Of a DNA stretch of 64,000 nucleotides, positions 3,272 to 44,742 are shown piece by piece. The notes under the pieces are model-generated. The model saw only the letters and a list, made by a program, of their open reading frames with translations, had not been told where the DNA came from and searched no databases. The position numbers and the translations under genes are program-made. Within the stretch, counting starts at the first letter, position 1. The number at the start of each line of letters is the position of its first letter. Source of the stretch: Escherichia coli (lineage in GTDB: Bacteria; Pseudomonadota; Gammaproteobacteria; Enterobacterales; Enterobacteriaceae); the NCBI RefSeq assembly GCF_024298765.1, contig NZ_CP101210.1. One strand, written 5' to 3'.

Positions 3272-3364
3272 AATGTAGAGAGTTTCTCTGAAGTCTAACA
3301 GAGAACCGTTTTTCAGTGCGCATCTTAACTGGTAACATTAGCCTCTTTTTTTAAGGAGCCTGAG

Positions 3365-3916
3365 ATGACTAAGCAGCCCGAAGACTGGCTCGACGACGTT
3401 CCCGGTGATGACATCGAAGACGAAGACGATGAAATTATCTGGGTCAGTAAAAGTGAAATTAAACGCGATGCCGAGGAGCTAAAACGCCTTGGCGCGGAAA
3501 TTGTTGATCTGGGGAAAAACGCGCTGGATAAGATCCCGTTAGATGCGGATCTGCGCGCGGCTATTGAGCTCGCCCAGCGTATTAAGATGGAAGGTCGCCG
3601 CCGCCAGTTGCAGCTCATCGGTAAGATGCTGCGCCAGCGCGATGTTGAGCCTATTCGTCAGGCGCTGGATAAGCTGAAAAACCGCCACAACCAGCAAGTG
3701 GTGTTGTTCCATAAACTGGAAAACCTGCGCGATCGTCTGATCGAGCAAGGTGATGACGCCATCGCTGAAGTATTGAATCTGTGGCCCGATGCCGATCGTC
3801 AGCAACTGCGTACTCTGATCCGTAACGCGAAGAAAGAGAAAGAAGGGAATAAGCCGCCGAAATCCGCGCGCCAGATTTTCCAGTATCTGCGTGAGTTAGC
3901 GGAAAACGAAGGGTAA
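3365..3916 (+). CDS. yjgA: Ribosome-associated DUF615 protein YjgA (DarP)
   Basis: 183 aa acidic/basic ORF divergent from pmbA. Confidence 0.88.
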
Positions 3917-3942
3917 TTTTCGTTGTTGATGTGAGTATGGTT

Positions 3943-4047
3943 TGCCGGATGCGGTGCACCTGTAGGCCTGATAAGACGCATCAAGCGTCGCATCAGGCAC
4001 TATGCTCAAATGCCGGATGCGGCGTGAACGCCTTATCCGGCCTACAC
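3943..4047. repeat. REP/BIME cluster
   Basis: GCCGGATGCGG...CCTTATCCGGCCTACA units plus GGCCTGATAAGACGC...GCGTCGCATCAGGC unit. Confidence 0.8.
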
Positions 4048-4073
4048 ACACTCTATCAGGCTGAGGCTGTGAA

Positions 4074-5447
4074 TTACTGCGCGGCTTCCGCTTTCTTCGC
4101 TAACCCATCCAGCAGTTTCTGATGGATCCCACCAAAACCGCCGTTACTCATCACCAGAATGTGATCGCCCGGCTGAGCGGTTTTCACCACCATATCTGCC
4201 AGCGTATCCACATCGCCGCTCCAGTGTGCAGGCTGAACGCAGGCTTCTGCCACTTCTGCCACCTGCCACGGAATATGCGCCGGTTGCAGCAGGAAGACTT
4301 CATCGGCACGACCTAATGAAGGTGCCAGATCGTCTTTGCAGATCCCCATTTTCATGGTGTTTGAGCGCGGTTCCAGCACGGCAATAATGCGCGCCGTACC
4401 ACCAACTTTGCCACGCAGCGCCGCAAGCGTTGCCAGAATCGCCGTCGGGTGATGGGCAAAATCGTCATATACCGTCACACCATTCGCTTCACCACGCAAC
4501 TCCAGACGGCGACGAGCATTAATAAACGAACCCAGCGCGTTAGCGGCATCTGCCGGCGCTACACCAACATGGCGAGCCGCCGCAATCGCCATCAGGCCAT
4601 TGTGCATATTATGTTCGCCTACCAGCGACCATTTCACTTCGCCCACTTTTTCGCCATCCAGCAAGACTTCCCATTCGGAAGCATCGGTGGTCAGCTTTTT
4701 CGCCTGCCAGTGACCTTGCTCGCCCACCAGCTCCTGCTCGCTCCAGCAGCCCATCGCCATGGTCTGTTTCAGGTTGATGTCATTTTCCGGCCAGATAATA
4801 CGGCCCTGCCCCGGAACGATACGCACCAGATGGTGGAACTGTTTCTGGATCGCTTTCAGGTCGTCAAAGATATCGGCGTGATCGAACTCAAGGTTGTTGA
4901 GGATCAGCGTACGCGGGCAGTAATGGACAAATTTAGAGCGTTTGTCGAAGAAGGCGCAGTCATACTCATCCGCTTCGATAACAAAGAAGTCGCTTTCGCC
5001 CAGACGCGCCGAAACCTCAAAGTTCCCCGGCACACCGCCGATCACAAATCCCGGTTTGTAACCGCACTGTTCCAGAATCCAGGTTGCCATTCCCGCGGTG
5101 GTGGTTTTGCCATGTGTACCGGCAACGGCCAGCACCCAGCGGTCGCGCAGCACAAAATCGTGCAGCCACTGCGGACCTGACATATAAGGGATGTTTTTTT
5201 CCAGTACCGCTTCCACACACGGATTTCCACGGGTCATGGCGTTACCAATAATCACCAGATCCGGCTGTGGATCGAGCTGGCTGGCATCGTAACCCTGAAT
5301 CAGTTCAATGCCTTGCTTCTCAAGTAAGGTGCTCATCGGCGGATACACATTGGCGTCCGAACCCGTTACTTCATGGCCTAACTGGCGCGCCAGCATCGCC
5401 AGACCGCCCATAAACGTGCCACAAATTCCTAAAATATGAATGCGCAT
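4074..5447 (-). CDS. mpl: UDP-N-acetylmuramate:L-alanyl-gamma-D-glutamyl-meso-diaminopimelate ligase (murein peptide ligase)
   Basis: 457 aa ORF with Mur ligase P-loop (GTHGKTTT). Confidence 0.92.
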   Translation of the reverse strand: MRIHILGICGTFMGGLAMLARQLGHEVTGSDANVYPPMSTLLEKQGIELIQGYDASQLDPQPDLVIIGNAMTRGNPCVEAVLEKNIPYMSGPQWLHDFVLRDRWVLAVAGTHGKTTTAGMATWILEQCGYKPGFVIGGVPGNFEVSARLGESDFFVIEADEYDCAFFDKRSKFVHYCPRTLILNNLEFDHADIFDDLKAIQKQFHHLVRIVPGQGRIIWPENDINLKQTMAMGCWSEQELVGEQGHWQAKKLTTDASEWEVLLDGEKVGEVKWSLVGEHNMHNGLMAIAAARHVGVAPADAANALGSFINARRRLELRGEANGVTVYDDFAHHPTAILATLAALRGKVGGTARIIAVLEPRSNTMKMGICKDDLAPSLGRADEVFLLQPAHIPWQVAEVAEACVQPAHWSGDVDTLADMVVKTAQPGDHILVMSNGGFGGIHQKLLDGLAKKAEAAQ

Positions 5448-5622
5448 ACGTCACTATCCTTTTTTAATCTGGCGCTCATTTTACGCATATGTCGGGCAAG
5501 TGAGAAACGCATTTCAGGATAATCCGTAATTTGCTGGCGCGATTCACCTGAGCGCAACATTGGGATTATTTGTTAAGATTGTTGCGGTCGCTTTACTCCA
5601 TAAACATTGCAGGGAAAGTTTT

Positions 5623-6621
5623 ATGAAAACGTTAGGTGAATTTATTGTCGAAAAGCAGCACGAGTTTTCTCATGCTACCGGTGAGCTCACTGCTTTGCTG
5701 TCGGCAATAAAACTGGGCGCCAAGATTATCCATCGCGATATCAACAAAGCAGGACTGGTTGATATCCTGGGTGCCAGCGGTGCTGAGAACGTGCAGGGCG
5801 AGGTTCAGCAGAAACTCGACCTGTTCGCTAATGAGAAACTGAAAGCCGCACTGAAAGCACGCGATATCGTTGCGGGCATTGCCTCTGAAGAAGAAGATGA
5901 GATTGTCGTCTTTGAAGGCTGTGAACACGCAAAATACGTGGTGCTGATGGACCCACTGGATGGCTCGTCCAACATCGATGTTAACGTCTCTGTCGGTACC
6001 ATTTTCTCCATCTACCGCCGCGTTACGCCTGTTGGCACGCCGGTAACGGAAGAAGATTTCCTCCAGCCTGGTAACAAACAGGTTGCGGCAGGTTACGTGG
6101 TATACGGCTCCTCTACTATGCTGGTTTACACCACCGGATGCGGTGTTCACGCCTTTACTTATGATCCTTCGCTGGGTGTTTTCTGCCTGTGCCAGGAACG
6201 GATGCGCTTCCCGGAGAAAGGCAAAACCTACTCCATCAACGAAGGAAACTACATTAAGTTTCCGAACGGGGTGAAGAAGTACATTAAATTCTGCCAGGAA
6301 GAAGATAAATCCACCAACCGCCCGTATACCTCACGTTATATCGGTTCACTGGTCGCGGATTTCCACCGTAACCTGCTGAAAGGCGGTATTTATCTCTACC
6401 CAAGCACCGCCAGCCACCCGGACGGTAAACTGCGTTTACTGTATGAGTGCAACCCGATGGCATTCCTGGCGGAACAAGCAGGCGGTAAAGCGAGCGATGG
6501 CAAAGAGCGTATTCTGGATATCATCCCGGAAACCCTGCACCAGCGCCGTTCATTCTTTGTCGGCAACGACCATATGGTTGAAGATGTCGAACGCTTTATC
6601 CGTGAGTTCCCGGACGCGTAA
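5623..6621 (+). CDS. fbp: Fructose-1,6-bisphosphatase class I
   Basis: ORF 5560-6621; start taken at [10 protein letters not shown] (332 aa) rather than the upstream ORF start. Confidence 0.92.
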
Positions 6622-11270: not shown

Positions 11271-11341
11271 AGGGTTGTCCTCGTCGGGGTAATTATTATT
11301 GGTGAAAAGATGTTCGCGAAAAAACTATAGACAATTCGTTA

Positions 11342-11360
11342 TGTAACGGATTGCGTTACA
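11342..11360. promoter_or_regulatory. Inverted repeat TGTAACG-gattg-CGTTACA in ytfQ upstream region, candidate operator
   Basis: 7-5-7 perfect palindrome ~70 bp upstream of the ytfQ start. Confidence 0.3.
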
Positions 11361-11510
11361 TCACACTTCAAAAAAGTAAATAAAACGTTAATCACAAGTT
11401 TGTAATCGCTTTCATCTCACTATGAAAAATGCGGCTACGGTTATGGATTTTCCTGCTCTGTATACCGTCTTAAAACTGGCGAAAAAGGAAAATGAAGACG
11501 AAAACAAGCG

Positions 11511-11538
11511 AAGACATTCGGCGCGAGTTGGCTATAAT
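11511..11538 (+). promoter_or_regulatory. Putative sigma70 promoter of ppa
   Basis: -35 AAGACA (11511-11516), 16-nt spacer, -10 TATAAT (11533-11538), ~40 nt upstream of the ppa ATG. Confidence 0.4.
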
Positions 11539-11579
11539 ACTCGGCACTTGTTTGCCACATATTTTTAAAGGAAACAGAC

Positions 11580-12110
11580 ATGAGCTTACTCAACGTCCCT
11601 GCGGGTAAAGATCTGCCGGAAGACATCTACGTTGTTATTGAGATCCCGGCTAACGCAGATCCAATCAAATACGAAATCGACAAAGAGAGCGGCGCACTGT
11701 TCGTTGACCGCTTCATGTCCACCGCGATGTTCTATCCGTGCAACTACGGTTACATCAACCACACTCTGTCTCTGGACGGTGACCCGGTTGACGTACTGGT
11801 CCCGACTCCGTACCCGCTGCAGCCGGGTTCTGTGATCCGCTGCCGTCCGGTTGGCGTACTGAAAATGACCGACGAAGCCGGTGAAGATGCGAAACTGATT
11901 GCTGTTCCGCACACCAAGCTGAGCAAAGAATACGATCACATTAAAGACGTTAACGATCTGCCAGAGCTGCTGAAAGCGCAAATCGCTCACTTCTTCGAGC
12001 ACTACAAAGACCTCGAAAAAGGCAAGTGGGTTAAAGTTGAAGGTTGGGAAAACGCAGAAGCCGCTAAAGCTGAAATCGTTGCTTCCTTCGAGCGCGCCAA
12101 GAATAAATAA
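11580..12110 (+). CDS. ppa: Inorganic pyrophosphatase
   Basis: 176 aa ORF recognised as E. coli Ppa ([32 protein letters not shown]...). Confidence 0.95.
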
Positions 12111-12451
12111 GTTCTTCTGGCGCAATAACCCTGAACACCGGGCTTCGGTTAGTAAGGGTTTTTTTATGCCCGCAATTTATAAACTCTCTACTCCACTATT
12201 ATTATTTTCAGCAGTTGAAAGGCTTGAACGGTAAGAACAAGCTAAACTCGACCACCATTTTGCTGTTCATAGCCACTTGCTGGAAGTTAGCCGGCCTCAC
12301 TCATACTCACCGTTCAAAGCGTGTCCCCGTTTTACCCCTGTACATTTGTTAACGCCAGCAGAGTTTTTTATGCGATTGCAGATATGGAAAGCGGCCCGGA
12401 GAGAAAAGCAAAAGATGGGAAAGTTACAAAAAAAATCGCGAGATACATCGC

Positions 12452-12478
12452 ATAAAACAACGCCACCCGAAGGTGGCG
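12452..12478 (-). terminator. Rho-independent terminator downstream of ytfP (bidirectional in appearance)
   Basis: CGCCACC-CGAA-GGTGGCG hairpin flanked by T-rich sequence on both strands. Confidence 0.6.
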
Positions 12479-12489
12479 TGCTTTTATTA

Positions 12490-12831
12490 TTACTTATCCC
12501 TGTCTAACCAGTCGCCGCTTTCAATTAGCTTTAATCCATCGACGGGTCGTTGATAAACGTACATCCATGCACTCCCGTACGGCGTCTGAATCAACTGGCG
12601 CGCGTATTCACCGCCCCTGGTGCGCAAGGCATCAAGTTCGGCCAGCGTGGCGTTATCAATACGATAAACTTCACCGTGTACTGTTCCGTTCCCCGGAACT
12701 GCGCCTGGATAGTGGCCCAGGCTATACAACTGGTAGTTATCGATACTGAAATCGCCCAGTAACTGGGCATTGGTCATCCAGTGACTGTTGCCTTGTTTGT
12801 GGCGTAAACTGCCGTAGACAAATATTCGCAT
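12490..12831 (-). CDS. ytfP: Gamma-glutamylcyclotransferase-family protein
   Basis: 113 aa ORF immediately downstream of tamB. Confidence 0.88.
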   Translation of the reverse strand: MRIFVYGSLRHKQGNSHWMTNAQLLGDFSIDNYQLYSLGHYPGAVPGNGTVHGEVYRIDNATLAELDALRTRGGEYARQLIQTPYGSAWMYVYQRPVDGLKLIESGDWLDRDK

Positions 12832-12833
12832 TG

Positions 12834-18385
<5,552 letters not shown>

Positions 18386-35403: not shown

Positions 35404-36195
35404 ATGAAATCCACTCGTCCTGTTGCCGTGATTACCGGAGCCGCACGTGGTATTGGAAAGGGCTGTGCGCTGGAGCTTGCGCGTGGCGGATTTAATCTGC
35501 TGATTAATGATCGTCCGGATACCGATAGCGTAGAAAAATTACATGCCACACAACAAGAATGTCTGGCGGAAGGCGTGGAAGTGATTTGCTTCCCTGCTGA
35601 TGTTGGCGATCTCTCCCTGCATGAAGAGATGCTCGACGCAGCGCAAAACCAGTGGGGACGTCTGGACTGCCTGCTCAACAACGCAGGCATTTCAGTGAAA
35701 AAACGCGGTGATCTTCTCGACCTCGAACCAGACAGCTTCGACCAAAATATTGCCATTAACACCCGCGCACCGTTCTTCCTCGCTCAGGCATTCAGTAAGC
35801 GCTTACTGGCACAGCCGAAACCGGAAGCAGAACTGCCGCACCGCTCGATTATTTTCGTCAGTTCCATCAACGCCATCATGCTGGCGATGAATCGCGGCGA
35901 ATATACCATTGCCAAAACTGCCGTCTCTGCCGCTGCTCGTCTGTTTGCTGCTCGCCTTTGTAATGAACAAATTGGCGTTTATGAAGTGCGTCCTGGTCTC
36001 ATCAAAACCGATATGACTATTCCGGCAACGGCCTATTACGACGAACTGATTGCCAAAGGTCTGGTGCCGTGGGGACGTTGGGGTTATCCGGCTGATATTG
36101 CTTCCACTGTCCGCGCGATGGCGGAAGGTAAACTGATTTACACCTGTGGTCAGGCGGTCGCCATCGACGGCGGCTTAAGTATGCCGCGCTTCTGA
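35404..36195 (+). CDS. Short-chain dehydrogenase/reductase (SDR) family oxidoreductase
   Basis: 263 aa; TGAARGIG cofactor motif near the N-terminus. Confidence 0.85.
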   Translation: MKSTRPVAVITGAARGIGKGCALELARGGFNLLINDRPDTDSVEKLHATQQECLAEGVEVICFPADVGDLSLHEEMLDAAQNQWGRLDCLLNNAGISVKKRGDLLDLEPDSFDQNIAINTRAPFFLAQAFSKRLLAQPKPEAELPHRSIIFVSSINAIMLAMNRGEYTIAKTAVSAAARLFAARLCNEQIGVYEVRPGLIKTDMTIPATAYYDELIAKGLVPWGRWGYPADIASTVRAMAEGKLIYTCGQAVAIDGGLSMPRF

Positions 36196-36204
36196 GGCTG
36201 AATC

Positions 36205-37047
36205 ATGAGAGATCTGTTACAACGCCCGGATTTATTCAGTATCAATACCGCGACACTGGGCTATAAAACGCCGCTGCCCGCCATTATTGATGCCTGCGCC
36301 GCACGCGGTATTGGCGCCATTGCCCCCTGGCGCAGGGAGTTGCAGGGTGAAGATCTCCAGCAAATCGCCCGCCAGCTTGCTGCCAGTAACATAAACGTTT
36401 CCGGTTTGTGCCGTAGCACCTACTACACCGCACCGACGCTGGCGGAGCGCAAACTGGCGATTGACGATAACCGCCGGGCGCTGGACGACGCCGCTGTACT
36501 GAACGCCGCCTGTTATATGCAGGTGGTTGGCGGTCTGCCAATGGGAACAAAAGATCTGTATGAAGCGCGGGAACAAGTGAAACAAGGGATTCGCCAGTTA
36601 CTGCCACATTCGAAAGAGGTCGGCGTGCCGATTGCGCTGGAGCCGCTACACCCGATGACCGCAGCCGATCGTTCCTGTTTGTGCACGTTACGTCAGGCGC
36701 TGGACTGGTGTGATGAACTCGATCCCGATGGCGAATTTGGCCTCGGCGTGGCGGTAGATGTCTACCATGTCTGGTGGGACCCGGATCTCGCCAGTCAGAT
36801 CCTGCGTGCCGGAAAACGCATCCTCGCGTTTCATGTTTCCGACTGGTTAGTGCCGACCACCGATCTGGTCAATGACCGTGGAATGCCGGGAGATGGTGTC
36901 ATCAATATTCCGTCAATTCGTCGGCTGGTTGAAAACGCCGGATTTAATGGCGCTATTGAACTGGAAATATTCTCACCGTACTGGTGGCAGAAAGATATTA
37001 ACAGCACGCTGGATATTAGCGTCGATCGCATCGCACATTATTGTTAA
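36205..37047 (+). CDS. Sugar phosphate isomerase/epimerase (xylose-isomerase-like TIM barrel)
   Basis: 280 aa; family assigned from overall resemblance only; 9-nt gap to SDR gene. Confidence 0.7.
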   Translation: MRDLLQRPDLFSINTATLGYKTPLPAIIDACAARGIGAIAPWRRELQGEDLQQIARQLAASNINVSGLCRSTYYTAPTLAERKLAIDDNRRALDDAAVLNAACYMQVVGGLPMGTKDLYEAREQVKQGIRQLLPHSKEVGVPIALEPLHPMTAADRSCLCTLRQALDWCDELDPDGEFGLGVAVDVYHVWWDPDLASQILRAGKRILAFHVSDWLVPTTDLVNDRGMPGDGVINIPSIRRLVENAGFNGAIELEIFSPYWWQKDINSTLDISVDRIAHYC

Positions 37048-37056
37048 GGAATAATC

Positions 37057-37833
37057 ATGAGTGACCAACCCGTTCTGTTCAGCAGAGCGGCGGCTTCTTG
37101 CCGCCTGACATTGAACCGTGAAGATAAATGTCATGCTATTAATGAAGAAATGATCGAATCTCTCGACCATTATTTAAATGAAATTGAAAACGACACCACA
37201 TTACGATTAGTCGAATTAACGGCAACCGGCGATAAATTCTTTTGTGCGGGCGGCGATATTAAATCGTGGTCGGCCTATTCGCCATTAGATATGGGCAGAA
37301 AATGGATTAAACGCGGTAACGAGGTTTTTAATCGCCTGCGCAACTTACCCCAATTAACCGTTGCGAATCTCAACGGTCATACCATCGGTGGCGGTATTGA
37401 ACTTGCCTTGTGCTGCGATATTCGTATCGCTCGCCCCGGCGCGAAATTCTCTAACCCGGAAGTGATGCTCGGCATGGTGCCTGGCTGGATGGGCATTGAA
37501 CGCGTGCTTAATCAGGTTGGCCCGGTGGTCGGTCGCCAGATGCTGATGCTGGGTAAACGCCTGACGGCGCAGGAAGCTCAGGTGGCGAATTTAATTGATG
37601 AAGTGGTAGAAAAAGAACAGGTGGAAAGCTGGATGGCGAACCAGTTAGCGCAGCTGGAAAAATGTGGTCCGGTGGCACTGGCACATATTAAGCAACTGAT
37701 TCTGGCGCTGGAAAATAAACACGCCGATTACTCCCACCAGTTACTGGCTGGATTAATGTCCGCCACTCAGGATTGCCAACAGGCGACGCACGCATTTGCC
37801 GAAAAAGCCGGCGTGAGCTTCCACAATCAATAA
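37057..37833 (+). CDS. Enoyl-CoA hydratase/isomerase (crotonase) family protein
   Basis: 258 aa; crotonase-fold motifs (FCAGGDIK, GHTIGGGIELAL). Confidence 0.85.
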   Translation: MSDQPVLFSRAAASCRLTLNREDKCHAINEEMIESLDHYLNEIENDTTLRLVELTATGDKFFCAGGDIKSWSAYSPLDMGRKWIKRGNEVFNRLRNLPQLTVANLNGHTIGGGIELALCCDIRIARPGAKFSNPEVMLGMVPGWMGIERVLNQVGPVVGRQMLMLGKRLTAQEAQVANLIDEVVEKEQVESWMANQLAQLEKCGPVALAHIKQLILALENKHADYSHQLLAGLMSATQDCQQATHAFAEKAGVSFHNQ

Positions 37834-37842
37834 GGAAATTGT

Positions 37843-39384
37843 ATGCGTAAGTTATCAACCGCCGAGACACTGGCGGCGCAAATTCAGGACGGCGCAACCA
37901 TTGCCATTAGCGGCAACGGCGGCGGCATGGTGGAAGCTGACCATATTCTGGCCGCCATTGAAGCGCGCTTTCTGCAAACCGGACACCCGCGCGATCTGAC
38001 ATTAATCCACTCGCTGGGTATTGGCGATCGCGACAGCAAAGGCACTAACCGTTTTGCTCACGCCGAAATGCTCAAACGCATTATTGCCGGACATTTTACC
38101 TGGTCGCCCAAGATGCAGGAACTGGTGAAAAGCAATGCTATTGAAGCCTACTGTTTCCCTGGTGGCGTAATTCAGGCACTGCTGCGGGAGATCGGTGCCG
38201 GACGTCCGGGGCTTTTTACCCACGTTGGGCTGGGATCGTTTGTTGATCCACGCAATGGTGGCGGTAAGTCGAATGAATGCACGACCGACGACCTGGTAGA
38301 ACTGATTGAAATCGACGGTGAAACCAAACTCCGCTATCGCCCTTTCAAAGTGGACTACGCGATTTTGCGCGGCACCTATGCCGATCCGCGTGGCAACGTT
38401 AGCCTCGAAGAAGAAGCGATTGATATGGATAGCTATTCGATGGCGCTGGCAGCACACAACAGTGGCGGCAAAGTGTTTGTACAGGTGCGCGATGTACTGG
38501 AAGCTGGCGCCATTGAACCTCGCAAGGTCAAGCTACCGGGGATTCTGGTCGATGGTATCGTTGAACACCGCGAACAACCGCAAACCTATCTTGGCGGTTA
38601 CGACCTGACCATCAGCGGTCAGCATCGCCGTCTAAGTTCTAACGACGCTATTGAACTGGTTAGTCATCCGGTGCGTCGCCTGATTGCCCGTCGGGCAGCG
38701 CGGGAACTGGCGGCAGGTGCTTCAACCAACTTTGGCTTTGGTATTCCCGGCGGTATTCCTGGGGTTGCACTGCGCGAAGGCGTGCCTTATCAAAGTTTGT
38801 GGCTGAGTGTAGAACAGGGTGTACATAACGGCATGATGCTGGATGATGCTCTGTTCGGCTGCGCCCGTAACGCCGATGCCATTATTCCATCACTCGATCA
38901 ATTCGAATTCTACAGTGGCGGCGGTATCGATATCACCTTCCTCGGCATGGGAGAGATGGATCGGTACGGTAACGTCAACGTATCCCATCTCAATGGCAAT
39001 CTCATTGGCCCCGGCGGCTTCCTCGAAATTGCGCAAAACGCCCGTAAAGTGGTGTTCTGCGGTACGTTCGACGCTAAAGGCAGCAAGATTGATGTAACGC
39101 CTGATGGCCTGCATATCGCCCAGTCAGGTCAAATCCCCAAACTGGTTACCCAGGTGGAAAAAATTACTTTTAGCGCCGCATACGCACAGCAAAGCAGTCA
39201 GGAAGTGCTGTATATCACCGAACGTGCGGTATTCCAGTTAACGGCAGAAGGCGTTGAATTAATTGAGATCGCCCCTGGCGTAGAGATTGACCGCGACATT
39301 CTGCCGTATATGGCCTTCCGTCCGATTATCAGGCACCCACGCCTGATGGAAAGTAGCCTGTTTACGCCAATGGAGGATGCATGA
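37843..39384 (+). CDS. Family I CoA-transferase (fused alpha/beta; propionate/acetate CoA-transferase-like)
   Basis: 513 aa; assigned by resemblance to YdiF/Pct-type CoA transferases. Confidence 0.75.
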   Translation: MRKLSTAETLAAQIQDGATIAISGNGGGMVEADHILAAIEARFLQTGHPRDLTLIHSLGIGDRDSKGTNRFAHAEMLKRIIAGHFTWSPKMQELVKSNAIEAYCFPGGVIQALLREIGAGRPGLFTHVGLGSFVDPRNGGGKSNECTTDDLVELIEIDGETKLRYRPFKVDYAILRGTYADPRGNVSLEEEAIDMDSYSMALAAHNSGGKVFVQVRDVLEAGAIEPRKVKLPGILVDGIVEHREQPQTYLGGYDLTISGQHRRLSSNDAIELVSHPVRRLIARRAARELAAGASTNFGFGIPGGIPGVALREGVPYQSLWLSVEQGVHNGMMLDDALFGCARNADAIIPSLDQFEFYSGGGIDITFLGMGEMDRYGNVNVSHLNGNLIGPGGFLEIAQNARKVVFCGTFDAKGSKIDVTPDGLHIAQSGQIPKLVTQVEKITFSAAYAQQSSQEVLYITERAVFQLTAEGVELIEIAPGVEIDRDILPYMAFRPIIRHPRLMESSLFTPMEDA

Positions 39385-41453
39385 GTCAGCTTGATGAGGC
39401 CATCCTTGATGCACTGACACACGTTACTTTCCCAAAGGGTTTTGCACAGGCAGAACCCGCATGGGTTGTCACGGTAGACGGTGTTGATTACCCACTCTGG
39501 AAAACAGATGCCCTGGTAGTCGGCAGTGGTGCAGCCGGGCTACGTGCAGCTGTGGAACTTAAACGCCGCCAGCAAAATGTGTTAATCGCCACCGCCGGGT
39601 TATATATGGGGACATCGGCATGTTCTGGCTCTGATAAACAAACACTGTTTACCGCCGCTACCGCGGGCAACGGCGACAACTTCGCCAAACTGGCAGAGGC
39701 ACTGGCGAGCGGTGGGGCGATGGATCACGACACCGCTTATGTCGAAGCGGTAGGTTCTCTGCACACTCTTGGCGGGTTGCAATATCTTGGTCTGGAATTA
39801 CCGGAAGATCGCTATGGCGCGATTCTTCGTTATCAAACCGACCATGACGAAGCCGGGCGTGCAACCTCGTGTGGGCCGCGTACCTCAAGGTTAATGGTGA
39901 AAGTGCTGCTGGAAGAAGTACAGCGTCTTGCTATCCCAATGTTGACCAGTGCAACAGTGATTAAACTGCTGCATCAGCGTGACGAAAACGGTGAAGACCG
40001 TGTGGCGGGGGCAATCCTCGCGACCGGTCATCGCGCCCATAACCCATGGGGGCTGGCAATTGTGACTGCGCCCAATGTGGTACTGGCAACAGGAGGGCCT
40101 GGCGAGCTTTATCGCGACAGTGTGTATCCACACAAATGTTTCGGCTCGCTGGGGCTGGCGCTGGAGGAAGGTCTGACGCTAACCAATCTGACTGAAAGCC
40201 AGTTTGGTATCGGCACACCGCGCAGCACGTTTCCGTGGAATTTGTCCGGCACCTATGTGCAGGTGATCCCGTATATCTATTCCGTGGATGCCGAGGGCAA
40301 CGAGTATAACTTCCTCGCGGATTACTATCGCACCACCCAAGAGCTGGCTTCAAACATTTTCCGTAAAGGCTATCAGTGGCCGTTCCACGCCACGCGGGTA
40401 ATGGATTTTGGCTCCAGCTTGTTAGATATGGCGGTGGCGCAAGAGCAGCAACATGGTCGCCAGGTGTTTATGGATTTCAATCGCAATCCTGAAGTGGTGC
40501 CGGGTGACCTGCCCTTCTCATTAGATCGACTGGACGACGACGTTCGCGCGTATCTGGAAAATAACGACGCTCTGGCACCATCGCCCATCGAACGACTGCA
40601 ACGAATGAATCCGCTGTCTATCTCGCTGTATAAGATGCACGGTTACGATCTCACCACGCAGCCATTGCAGTTTGCCATGAATAATCAGCATATGAATGGC
40701 GGCATTGAAGTGGATATCTGGGGACAAACATCTCTGCCCGGTTGTTTTGCTGTGGGGGAAGTTGCTGGCACACACGGCGTCACCCGACCTGGCGGTGCGG
40801 CATTGAATGCCGGGCAGGTTTTTGCTGTTCGTCTGGCACGTTTTATTGGTTGCACGCAAAAGCGGAATATTGATGGAGATATAGCACAGCTGGCAGCTCC
40901 GGCACTGGCTTCTATAAGAGAGATCATTACTCAGGCGCACGATAACGGAACCGGGATGCCGTTGTCGGTTGTGAGGGAAAAAATTCAGGCACGAATGTCT
41001 GACCATGCGGGATTTATTTGTCATGCCGATAAAGTCCGACGCGCCACTCGTGATGCCCTGCTATTGAGTGAATTTGTGCAACGGCATGGATTGGCAATCA
41101 AACATGTGGGTGAAGTTGCCGAGCTGTTTATGTGGCGGCATATGGCGCTGACTTCTGCCGCGGTATTAACACAATTAACGCATTATATTGATGCTGGTGG
41201 TGGTAGCCGTGGGGCGCGTATGGTTATAGATCCACAAGGCAAATGCCTACCACAAACTCGTCGCGGCGCAAAAGAAGAATGGCGTTTTCGCTCTGAACTC
41301 GCTGAAGACAAAAATCACAAATTAACAATTCAATATTCGCAAGGTTCTTTTATTACCGAAGTAAAGTCTTTACGTATTCAACCGTGTATTAACGGTATTT
41401 ACTTTGAAAAAAACTGGCCAGACTTTTTAAAGGGAGACATTTACACACAATAA
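39381..41453 (+). CDS. FAD-dependent oxidoreductase (fumarate reductase/succinate dehydrogenase flavoprotein-like)
   Basis: 690 aa; dinucleotide-binding motif VVGSGAAGLRAAVEL; ATGA overlap with the upstream CoA-transferase. Confidence 0.75.
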   Translation: MSQLDEAILDALTHVTFPKGFAQAEPAWVVTVDGVDYPLWKTDALVVGSGAAGLRAAVELKRRQQNVLIATAGLYMGTSACSGSDKQTLFTAATAGNGDNFAKLAEALASGGAMDHDTAYVEAVGSLHTLGGLQYLGLELPEDRYGAILRYQTDHDEAGRATSCGPRTSRLMVKVLLEEVQRLAIPMLTSATVIKLLHQRDENGEDRVAGAILATGHRAHNPWGLAIVTAPNVVLATGGPGELYRDSVYPHKCFGSLGLALEEGLTLTNLTESQFGIGTPRSTFPWNLSGTYVQVIPYIYSVDAEGNEYNFLADYYRTTQELASNIFRKGYQWPFHATRVMDFGSSLLDMAVAQEQQHGRQVFMDFNRNPEVVPGDLPFSLDRLDDDVRAYLENNDALAPSPIERLQRMNPLSISLYKMHGYDLTTQPLQFAMNNQHMNGGIEVDIWGQTSLPGCFAVGEVAGTHGVTRPGGAALNAGQVFAVRLARFIGCTQKRNIDGDIAQLAAPALASIREIITQAHDNGTGMPLSVVREKIQARMSDHAGFICHADKVRRATRDALLLSEFVQRHGLAIKHVGEVAELFMWRHMALTSAAVLTQLTHYIDAGGGSRGARMVIDPQGKCLPQTRRGAKEEWRFRSELAEDKNHKLTIQYSQGSFITEVKSLRIQPCINGIYFEKNWPDFLKGDIYTQ

Positions 41454-41545
41454 TTTCCAATATTTCCTCTGTACCTGATTTTTATTGCCTATTACATGGA
41501 AATACCAACAACCAGGGTTTATTAATATAATTAAAAGGTTTAAAA

Positions 41546-42823
41546 ATGAATAAAATAAAGAATTATCGATGGTATATGATTGCCCTCGTATGCTTTATCA
41601 CTGTAATCAATTATCTGGACAGAACGGCGTTAGGTATTGCGGCTCCAACGATTATGGAGACAACCGGAATAACCAAAGAACAATATTCATGGATTGTCAG
41701 TGCATTCCAGTTGGCCTATACATTAGGGCAACCGGTAATGGGCTTCTTTATTGATACCGTGGGTCTGAAGTTAAGTTTTGCGATATGTGCCGCAATTTGG
41801 GGCCTGGCGACAATGGGCCATGCACTAACCGGAACGTGGTCTGGTCTGGCATTTATGCGCGCCCTGATGGGTTTCAGCGAAGCGTCGGCAATTCCGGCGG
41901 GTGTAAAAACCGCATCAACATGGTTCCCGGCAAAAGAGCGTGGCGTGGCGACAGGTGTTTTCAATATGGGCACCTCACTCGGCGCGATGCTTGCTCCACC
42001 GTTGATTGCCTGGTGCATTATGTTTCATAGCTGGCAATTTGCGTTTATTGTTTCAGGTAGCCTTGCTTTGCTCGCGGCTTTATTTTGGTTCTTTTGTTAT
42101 AAAGATCCGAAAGATGCCAAACGCCTTTCTGATGAAGAGCGCCACTATATTGAATCAGGACAAGAACAGCATCTTAAAACAGATAAGAAAGAAAAAACAT
42201 CAATCAAGCATATCCTCAGCCAACGTAATTTCTGGGGGATTGGCATCGCGCGTTTTCTCGCAGACCCGGCATGGGGAACCATTAACTTCTGGGTGCCGAT
42301 TTTCTTCGTCGAAACGCTGCATTTTAGCCTGAAAGAAATTGCCATGTTCGTCTGGCTGCCTTTCCTGCTGGGCGATCTCGGCTGTTTAGCCAGTGGTTTT
42401 GTCGCGAAGTTCTTCCACGATCGCGGCGTGAGTTTAATTAACTCACGAAGAATTACCTTCACTATTGCAGCCGTCATTATGATGACGATTGGCCTGGTGA
42501 GTATTGTCGAAAATCCCTACATTGCCGTATTACTGATTAGTATTGGCGCGTTCTCGCATCAATGCCTTTCTACTGTAGCAGCAACTCTGGGTGGCGATCT
42601 GTTCAAAAAAGACGAAGTAGCTACCGCAGTGGGTATGGCAGGAGCCTGTGCGTGGAGCGGTCAGTTGATTTTCAACCTGTTCATCGGGGCATTCGTTCAC
42701 ATTATCGGCTTCGCGCCGTTCTTTATTGCCCTGGCTTTCTTTGACATTATTGGCGCCATTGCGCTGTGGATGCTTATCAAAGTTAAAGACGAAGAACTAC
42801 AAGTACAGTTAGCGACAAGCTAA
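41546..42823 (+). CDS. MFS transporter (anion:cation symporter family, hexuronate/glucarate-transporter-like)
   Basis: 425 aa 12-TM ORF; N-terminus NYLDRTALGIAAP typical of ExuT/GudP-like carriers. Confidence 0.82.
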   Translation: MNKIKNYRWYMIALVCFITVINYLDRTALGIAAPTIMETTGITKEQYSWIVSAFQLAYTLGQPVMGFFIDTVGLKLSFAICAAIWGLATMGHALTGTWSGLAFMRALMGFSEASAIPAGVKTASTWFPAKERGVATGVFNMGTSLGAMLAPPLIAWCIMFHSWQFAFIVSGSLALLAALFWFFCYKDPKDAKRLSDEERHYIESGQEQHLKTDKKEKTSIKHILSQRNFWGIGIARFLADPAWGTINFWVPIFFVETLHFSLKEIAMFVWLPFLLGDLGCLASGFVAKFFHDRGVSLINSRRITFTIAAVIMMTIGLVSIVENPYIAVLLISIGAFSHQCLSTVAATLGGDLFKKDEVATAVGMAGACAWSGQLIFNLFIGAFVHIIGFAPFFIALAFFDIIGAIALWMLIKVKDEELQVQLATS

Positions 42824-42832
42824 TTATTTTAC

Positions 42833-42960: not shown

Positions 42961-44228
42961 CTAAATTGCCCCCCTGAATGCCTCTGCCATTAACTCTTGC
43001 TCACGACCAGGTAATCGAAGACGCTCGGCAATGATTCGCCACTGACTGACAATCCCTCTAAAATTAGCAATAATGTCATCTGCTTCTGTCAAACCAAGTC
43101 GAAAATACTCCGCAACTTCTCGAGCTAATTCCAAATCAAGTGCATTATCATTTCTGTAATATTGAGTTTTAGACCGTCAGACCTGGCAACAGGATTCAAA
43201 TCATATGCCTCAGAAAGCCGCCAACCTTTTCCCGGTATCAAGATATATCCATGATTACGTAAATGGTCATCGGTATTAGAAACAAGAATATTAAAAACAA
43301 TCCTGGACCAGAGTTCCTTAAGGTCAGTATTAGTCTGCGCTCCATGTCTGATAAGAACATCTGCTAATTCCAGATAACTCACACCTGTAGAGGCATCTTC
43401 ACCATCCTGATGCCTGGTTAGTGTCATAGCCGAAGCAAAATGCAGACGCCTTCCCGCATTAGTGCGGTCAAAACGACGAACCATAAAACAATGGTAATTG
43501 CTGGCAAATTTATGCGCCTGAGCAGGTGCAACATTCAGTCCACAGCCAACAGCAAGTGCATTAACGACCATTTCCCATCCACCAACATCATACTCATCTT
43601 TTACACTGGGAAATTTAGCGATGTAGAGATGCCCAGCTTCATCAACAACACTGGCTTTCGGACGTGCCCCCCCTAATGATCCCCCCGGAGCGATTAGCAT
43701 TCTTAACCATTTTTGCCCCATTAGCTCTTTATTATCAGGATCTTCTTCAATTGCCCGGCTAGCCCTTTCCAGACTCGCTATTTCGGTAAATGGTGGGGCT
43801 GCAACATCAATGCGATTATCAAGAAACTCTCCAGCGTCTTCACGTTTGTATCGAAGAGCCCCAACCCGATAAAGATCATGAACACCTAGTAGATAATCAG
43901 ACTCATAAAGGTGGGAGTCTTTATCACATAACCCGTCTCGAATATCCCTCTCAAAACGACGCTTCATTAGCATACGCCCCCAACGATCCGGGCAGGAATC
44001 ACTAAATGCACCAAATTTATCCTTTGGAGGAATTGGGTACTGTGCTCCCTCATACAACATTATTTCAGGATCTAACTGAATGAAATTAAGTGAAGGATCT
44101 GCAAGCGCCTTTTTATCGTACTCAAACTCAAATATCTCACGCGTCCGAGTGCGGCGACTGTGTAAATAACCAATCCGCTCCGGACCATCCAGGCCTTCCC
44201 AATCCGCATACACTCCGATTAATGCCAT
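42961..44228 (-). pseudogene. HipA-family serine/threonine kinase toxin, frameshifted (367-aa ORF plus ~56 codons continuing in another frame)
   Basis: HipA motifs (APGGSLGGARPK, DDHLRNHG, AYDLNP); ORF stops at 43125 but frame continues to stop at 42961 after a 1-nt shift in an A run near 43151-43153. Confidence 0.7.
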
Positions 44229-44230
44229 AA

Positions 44231-44722
44231 TTAATTTCCTTTTAACGGTTTTTTTATCGGTTTTAATAGTGCTGCAAGAGAGGTTGATGTTTCTCCTGTA
44301 ATAGATGGCGTCGAGCCTTCTGCCAGTGCTGTTAAATCCGTGGTGAGATGACCTTCTTTCTCGTGCCTCATCTGCAATGAGGCTGTCTGAGAACCTTCTT
44401 CATTCTTACTTGATGCACGAGAAAGCCCTCTTTTTTTAATCAAACGGGAATCCTGGAGCTGACGCCCTAAGTCGTCTTCAGCTGCAAGCTTATTTAAATC
44501 CGTTTCCAGGCCCAAAACCTGCATCACAGACAAATATGCCCCTATCGTGACCCCTGCACTTCCTGACTCCAGAGAGCGCAATGTTATTGGCGACATCCCA
44601 GCACGTTCAGCAACTTGCTTTGCGGTAAGCCTGCGTCGTAAACGAGCAAGTTTCAGCCGCTCACCAAATTCACTAAGCATCTGATTCGTATAAGGGAGTA
44701 ACGGTGCTGTTTTTTTACCCAT
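44231..44722 (-). CDS. HipB-like XRE-family HTH antitoxin with long Ser/Thr-rich C-terminal extension
   Basis: 163 aa; [26 protein letters not shown]; stop 2 nt before hipA-like start. Confidence 0.75.
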
Positions 44723-44742
44723 AGTGATAATATTTTATCTTT

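Follow-up and report, generated by a model that had tools for sequence, protein, structure and literature searches.

In Escherichia coli K-12, the interval between ppa and ytfP is occupied by chpS-chpB (chpBI-chpBK), a toxin-antitoxin pair of the MazE/MazF-PemI/PemK family that was reportedly described by Masuda et al. in 1993. The K-12 locus (L001) has the order ppa, 79 bp, chpB, chpS, 211 bp, ytfP, and Table 1 of PMC5120126 gives the identical layout with chpB and chpS between ppa and ytfP, as an earlier note on the present DNA had correctly stated. In the window, by which we mean the whole 64-kb stretch of E. coli DNA analyzed here, ppa and ytfP are separated by exactly 379 bp (12111-12489). 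The earlier note had put this gap at about 380 bp and had taken it to lack the chpS-chpB module. The question is whether the gap is a site that was never occupied or one from which the module has been lost. Our comparison indicates that the gap is very probably the chpS-chpB type II toxin-antitoxin locus itself (ChpBI/ChpBK, MazEF-like) in an old deletion allele that no longer functions, and not an unoccupied site.

The segment 11580-12831, spanning both flanking genes, is 100% identical to that of E. coli strain 104, a chicken isolate from China, for which RefSeq gives the same ends of ppa and ytfP and annotates no feature in the gap. Next after ytfP lies tamB (12834-16613, minus strand). The features of the locus, with their coordinates in the window, are as follows.

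11580-12110, plus strand: ppa (inorganic diphosphatase), the left flank; 176-aa ORF, annotated ppa in strain 104.
12111-12187, plus strand: ppa-proximal spacer with a terminator-like hairpin of ppa inside, homologous to the K-12 ppa-chpB spacer.
12188-12212, minus strand: putative chpB 3′-end remnant, the last ~8 codons (..IIIVE*) with a TAG stop at 12188-12190, corresponding to K-12 chpB nt ~341-351 plus downstream spacer.
12213-12318, minus strand: chpB 5′-third remnant, nt 19-128 (codons ~7-43), recovered by blastn, tblastn and block alignment.
12319-12328, no strand assigned: deletion junction, ~10 nt assignable to no K-12 sequence, short and not securely aligned.
12329-12453, minus strand: remnant of the chpS upstream leader, 84% identical to the K-12 region upstream of chpS.
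12454-12489, minus strand: intrinsic terminator of ytfP (hairpin 12460-12479), bidirectional in form and conserved in every genus examined.
12490-12831, minus strand: ytfP (gamma-glutamylcyclotransferase family), the right flank; 113-aa ORF, Pfam GGACT, E 1e-28.

The terminator hairpin that the earlier note had placed right after ytfP is borne out by folding. The hairpin, ACGCCACC-TTCG-GGTGGCGT, begins 10 nt past the ytfP stop, is followed on the ytfP strand by a U-rich tail, and folds at -19.9 kcal/mol (z = -4.6), with none of 200 shuffled sequences as stable. The ppa hairpin is weaker (-15.9 kcal/mol, z = -1.4), with its stem at ~12127-12160 and a U run behind it; the end of ppa together with the spacer is 93% identical to K-12 over 104 nt, and the spacer is conserved across relic alleles. 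The convergent terminators, which insulate ppa and ytfP, are both intact in the window. The note had also found no convincing ORF between them, and this holds as well: the ORF list contains only mechanical ORFs of at most 76 aa in the gap, some of which run into the end of ppa or of ytfP, and RefSeq annotates none of them.

A resemblance of part of the gap to chpB was first spotted by eye and later confirmed by local alignment. The earlier note's reading depended on the interval being free of chpSB-homologous sequence, and such sequence is present. In blastn, 12212-12284 aligned to K-12 chpB over 76 nt with 80% identity (E 1e-15), and in tblastn against the whole 64 kb, ChpB residues 19-48 aligned to 12283-12194 on the minus strand with 60% identity and an in-frame stop (E 6e-6). 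When the relic core (12175-12335) was searched by blastn in 28 Gb of E. coli sequence, its matches in chpSB-positive genomes fell solely inside annotated chpB (E 1e-8). A global MAFFT alignment with K-12 had looked like a clean replacement, the remnant being misplaced on chpS and the leader, and was overturned by the local blastn and tblastn results. A global alignment with low gap-extension cost yielded several spurious blocks of 5-9 nt; only blocks backed by blastn or block alignment were retained, and the anatomy listed above is defined by piecewise and block alignments to K-12 chpB. The conceptual translation of the remnant, which is too short and degraded for a domain search, gave no Pfam match, and homology is accordingly drawn from direct comparison with chpB; as a control, intact K-12 ChpB matched PF02452 (E 1e-25).

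The remnant is orthologously placed: it lies on the ytfP strand, with the chpS leader to one side and the ppa-side spacer to the other, and both flanks are collinear with K-12. In all, ~130 bp of decayed chpB and ~125 bp of chpS leader are left in the gap. Two deletions separate it from the K-12 locus. At the junction 12319-12328, chpS, its promoter and operator, and chpB nt 1-18 have been lost (~313 bp relative to K-12); the second deletion took ~200 bp out of the middle of chpB (nt ~129-325). The stretch 12213-12318 carries further lesions: a 1-nt deletion shifts the reading frame, 3 nt are deleted as well, and a TAG interrupts the frame at 12242-12244. Assignment of 12188-12212 to the chpB 3′ end is the least secure part of this anatomy, the block being short and its alignment not secure; here the intact gene has GGTGGTGGAATAA, and GATGG(T/C)GGAATAG stands in its place in the alleles of BL21, L006 and E. 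albertii. The leader remnant lacks the operator palindrome GTTATACTTTGTATAAC and the ribosome-binding site, and contains a second terminator-like site (12437-12452, minus strand).

Compared with chpS-chpB of K-12, the window thus retains the position, the flanking spacers, the leader and sequence homologous to chpB nt 19-128 and the 3′ end, but has no antitoxin gene, promoter/operator, chpB start or chpB core, and with its broken frame the remnant cannot encode toxin or antitoxin. Missing from the gap are an intact PemK/MazF-family toxin ORF (~116 aa, as in ChpB) and the MazE/AbrB-type antitoxin gene chpS, which lies upstream of and overlaps the toxin gene; the autoregulated promoter with its operator palindrome upstream of the antitoxin is deleted. 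A tblastn search with ChpS found nothing in the gap (best E 1.4) and nothing credible in the 64 kb (best E 0.01, inside tamB), and no further copy of chpB or chpS was detected by tblastn anywhere in the window. What stands of the earlier note is therefore the absence of a functional module; the clean empty site that it implied does not stand, since decayed chpB and leader are present, and the alignment with K-12 that it had proposed for telling chpB remnants from a clean site turned up remnants.

The remnant is ~25% different from every intact Escherichia chpB, whereas the flanking genes differ from K-12 by 0.6-2.6%. Block alignment over ~105 nt counts 25-27 differences to Escherichia chpB and 45-56 to the chpB of other genera. 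Sixteen differences are fixed between relic and intact alleles, and all are derived on the relic side, six other genera sharing the intact state; they fall on codon positions 1, 2 and 3 in the ratio 8/5/3. Ten of the 16 sit in chpB nt 36-53, where a single complex event is possible for some of them, and this clustering weakens any clock-like dating of the relic. Substitutions in both blocks are biased toward AT (20 GC>AT against 6 AT>GC), and relic alleles differ from one another by indels and stops within the remnant. The substitution pattern is that of an unconstrained pseudogene, a decayed Escherichia chpB. An origin from the chpB of another genus was considered and ruled out, the relic being closest to Escherichia chpB.

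The relic is common in E. coli. Among 5,426 complete E. coli genomes, intact chpSB was matched in 3,098 (at least 80% of K-12 chpSB) and the relic in 2,323, or ~43% (at least 80% of the relic core); one or the other was matched in 5,422, so that there is essentially no truly empty site among sequenced complete E. coli genomes, and one old relic allele accounts for almost all that are chpSB-negative. The relic also occurs in a BL21 derivative and in B2 strains. esiB, the gene of a Sel1-repeat SIgA-binding protein, was found in 188 of the 5,426 genomes, and the relic without esiB occurs in ~39% of them. In both esiB genomes checked, the B2 strain NC101 and AST85, the chpB relic is kept, adjoining ppa, and a copy of the ytfP hairpin stands on each side of esiB. 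In NC101 (L083 4532-6566) the copies are at 4876-4899 and 6531-6554, 1,655 bp apart; the AST85 locus (L086 1007-3038) is built likewise. The relics of AST85 and the window share just 86% identity, and relic alleles are accordingly diverse. The window does not carry the esiB-occupied allele of B2 ExPEC, having a single hairpin (12460-12479) and no esiB.

A mosaic allele was observed in strain HH45 (L089 2393-2904), in which the deletion junctions, the 3′ end and the leader are relic-type, while over 101 nt the 5′ block of chpB matches intact K-12 chpB at 100% identity, with an unusual G-rich insert of ~130 bp behind it. PGAP annotates this allele as a partial PemK/MazF pseudogene, and the mosaic may stem from gene conversion by an intact allele or be an assembly artefact.

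The polymorphism itself was already published in 2013. Pastorello et al. (mBio, PMC3735183, Fig. 1C) surveyed 47 genomes, of which 15% had esiB, 53% chpBS and 32% neither, and described short direct repeats with inverted symmetry flanking esiB. These repeats correspond to the ytfP terminator hairpin, a sequence that flanks esiB as two copies in B2 strains and is present in a single copy in the window (12454-12479). The window represents the state called there "neither esiB nor chpBS". In the available portion of that paper both gene sets are treated as simply absent and no chpB remnant is mentioned, whereas here the absent state retains a relic, as does the esiB state in NC101 and AST85. No description of a chpB remnant was found in the open-access literature; two most relevant papers lay outside that search, so novelty is not claimed. 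The allele is common, and the relic, with the long time over which it has coexisted with the intact allele, extends the known polymorphism only slightly.

To place the relic in a wider setting, ytfP neighborhoods were compared at 80 loci, one per GTDB species representative genome. Intact chpS-chpB lies between ytfP and ppa in four Escherichia lineages other than K-12, and also in Lelliottia, Enterobacter asburiae, the Enterobacteriaceae isolate RIT691, two Pseudocitrobacter species and a Kluyvera genomospecies; ChpB is 116 aa long at every intact locus outside K-12. The leader between ytfP and chpS is nearly constant in length (209-214 bp) in 11 chpSB-positive species, and in 11 of 11 it ends in the palindrome GTTATACTTTGTATAAC conserved upstream of chpS; the relics of the window and of E. 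albertii have both lost this palindrome. Between Escherichia species, intact chpSB differs by 15-21% at 4-fold sites and ppa and ytfP of the same species by about 7-14%. Intact chpSB is thus roughly as diverged as the genes beside it, which speaks against a recent insertion, and the idea that the intact module lately spread horizontally between Escherichia species was rejected on the same grounds.

Within the leader (L001 2707-2917 and its equivalents in L003-L007, L029, L038, L047, L065, L067 and L082), conserved patches such as CTGCTGG were observed well upstream of the operator. Together with the nearly constant length of the leader, they suggest that the mobile or selected unit may exceed the promoter and two ORFs, or that the leader may function by itself.

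The age of the relic was approached through its distribution among species. The same junctions, in a structure of 378-379 bp, recur in L008, the type strain of E. albertii, and in L006, a divergent Escherichia lineage that is labelled E. coli, and the relics of E. coli, the L006 lineage and E. albertii have 16 derived changes in common. Between the window and E. albertii the relic differs by 17%, close to the local neutral rate given by the 4-fold sites of ppa and ytfP (13-15%), and tamB differs by 33% at its 4-fold sites. By tamB 4-fold distances E. albertii is the outgroup, and the relic and intact states are interleaved among the other lineages. As the relic cannot revert, this interleaving implies either that both alleles were already segregating before these species split or that they have been exchanged between species by homologous recombination. 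The relic probably arose once, before or near the split of E. coli and E. albertii, or else spread early between species, and has probably drifted neutrally since, with the intact allele persisting at the same locus in other lineages. That the relic is only about half as diverged as the tamB 4-fold sites (17% vs 33%) could reflect later interspecies transfer instead of strict vertical descent. A bolder version, in which intact and relic alleles form a trans-species polymorphism predating the E. coli/E. albertii split, possibly held at intermediate frequency (57:43 in E. coli) by opposing selection and not explained by drift or introgression, strikes us as rather doubtful; were it true, a defence or stress benefit, for example, would be set against the cost of the toxin. 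The common junctions and derived changes of the relics would fit it, as would the flank-like divergence of intact alleles in four other Escherichia lineages.

Against loss of an old locus stands the reading in which the 379 bp are ancestral and clean, K-12-type strains having gained chpSB by horizontal insertion. It would agree with the general view of chromosomal toxin-antitoxin modules as horizontal insertions that Ramisetty and Santhosh are said to have put forward in 2016. Chromosomal type II toxin-antitoxin loci have indeed been described as horizontally acquired and unevenly distributed (PMC5120126, PMC7167474), and in most other genera the ytfP-ppa gap is short and free of chpSB. Those gaps without chpSB or other inserts, however, measure only ~99-170 bp (most Citrobacter, Klebsiella, Kluyvera and Enterobacter species), and five of them when aligned (93-154 bp minus stop codons) contained no leader and had only the ytfP hairpin in common, whereas the interval in the window holds both chpB-derived sequence and the chpS leader. 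With the flank-like divergence of intact chpSB added, we regard an ancestral empty site as extremely unlikely: chpSB may originally have been acquired at the level of the genus or above, but the window represents loss and not a never-occupied state. The relic thus argues for loss, not gain, as the event separating E. coli strains at this locus. That the loss was recent and specific to this strain or clone can scarcely be credited. The locus does lose sequence, as the different partial chpB of HH45 illustrates, but the junctions of the window are common to 2,323 E. coli genomes, the BL21 derivative and B2 strains among them, as well as to E. albertii and the divergent lineage, and a recent deletion would not leave a remnant ~25% away from intact Escherichia chpB between flanks that differ so little from K-12.

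It is also very unlikely, on balance, that selection keeps the remnant in some co-opted role, for instance as a small RNA or small protein, or in regulating or insulating ppa or ytfP. Structure and junctions unchanged across species would fit such a role, as would the second terminator-like site at 12437-12452 and the lower divergence of the E. albertii relic than of tamB 4-fold sites. That divergence, however, equals that of the local synonymous sites of ppa and ytfP, and indels and stops vary among alleles within the remnant. Moreover, promoter-like sites in the gap were at chance in a promoter scan (1 vs 0.9 expected), RefSeq annotates nothing there, and an Rfam scan of 11300-12900 gave no match except a sub-threshold S15-leader hit inside ppa (E 0.27), which was dismissed.

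For an old deletion allele, the anatomy suggests how the module may have been lost. The first deletion (~313 bp) would have taken antitoxin, promoter/operator and toxin start together; in the alternative order, the internal chpB deletion would have come first and disabled the toxin before the antitoxin. Loss would be tolerated in either case, with toxin and antitoxin disabled jointly or the toxin first, both being safe routes. ChpB is a sequence-specific endoribonuclease of the MazF family. We infer that the strain probably lacks both this enzyme and its antitoxin ChpS, and that the relic itself is probably unexpressed and without function. If the first order applies, the locus would offer a dated example of losing an "addictive" module, its antitoxin, promoter and toxin start being removed in one go.

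Chromosomal type II toxin-antitoxin loci have been described at conserved positions, unevenly spread among phylogroups and sometimes decaying (PMC7167474). A known case is ccdO157 (Mine et al. 2009, via PMC7167474), a fixed chromosomal locus that is intact or degraded by deletion or nonsense mutation across E. coli, and whose decay that review takes to mean that a dispensable, selfish module is being lost. As far as that account of ccdO157 goes, chpSB resembles it in being a chromosomal type II system at a fixed locus, intact in some strains and degraded in others; unlike ccdO157, it belongs to another toxin-antitoxin family at another locus, and a single old cross-species relic explains almost all chpSB-negative genomes. 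For the window itself the consequence is small, the allele being a common, published one of a dispensable toxin-antitoxin locus. More generally, "chpBS-negative" strains, including the BL21-derived strain and the two esiB genomes, are not naive sites, and a decayed toxin fragment can affect PCR or k-mer typing of toxin-antitoxin repertoires.

Possible traces of chpSB were also seen in other genera, in a tblastn search of all compared loci with ChpB and ChpS from seven lineages (K-12 and six other loci). The 347-bp gap of Citrobacter sedlakii (L025 3430-3471) holds a ChpB-like fragment of 14 aa (E 3e-5), and Enterobacter cloacae DSM 26481 (L031 5100-5168) has a ChpS-like one of 23 aa (E 1.5e-5) adjoining ppa. 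Both matches are weak and short, and it is possible that they represent independent chpSB relics.

Other genes were found in the gap as well. In E. coli N50 (L084 4532-8709), a beta-glucoside PTS IIABC gene, a family-1 glycoside hydrolase gene and a licT-type antiterminator gene come directly after ppa, with no ytfP within the following 4 kb. Outside Escherichia, occupants were seen at L014, L015, L039, L043 and L052 (about 3343-6040): the gap of Citrobacter youngae and Salmonella enterica subsp. arizonae holds an Hcp-domain protein with a C-terminal extension, which in S. arizonae matches Pfam T6SS_HCP and is followed by a small ORF, and that of Silvania, Enterobacter soli and Pluralibacter holds a methyl-accepting chemotaxis protein gene. 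The ytfP-ppa gap is an insertion or replacement hotspot across Enterobacteriaceae, taking chpSB, esiB, a beta-glucoside PTS island, and Hcp-toxin or chemoreceptor genes.

A second decaying toxin-antitoxin locus was noticed in the window at 42962-44723 on the minus strand. It comprises a HipA-family toxin gene, annotated as frameshifted in strain 104 and with its ORF ending at 367 aa (43125-44228), and an intact upstream partner, a 163-aa HTH-domain protein (44231-44722). The pair lies between rplI and a fatty-acid-type metabolic cluster (about 35405-42824) that is absent from K-12, and matches the "hipA-2/xre-3" locus of PMC7232551, where hipA-2/xre-3 are given as pseudogenes in CFT073.
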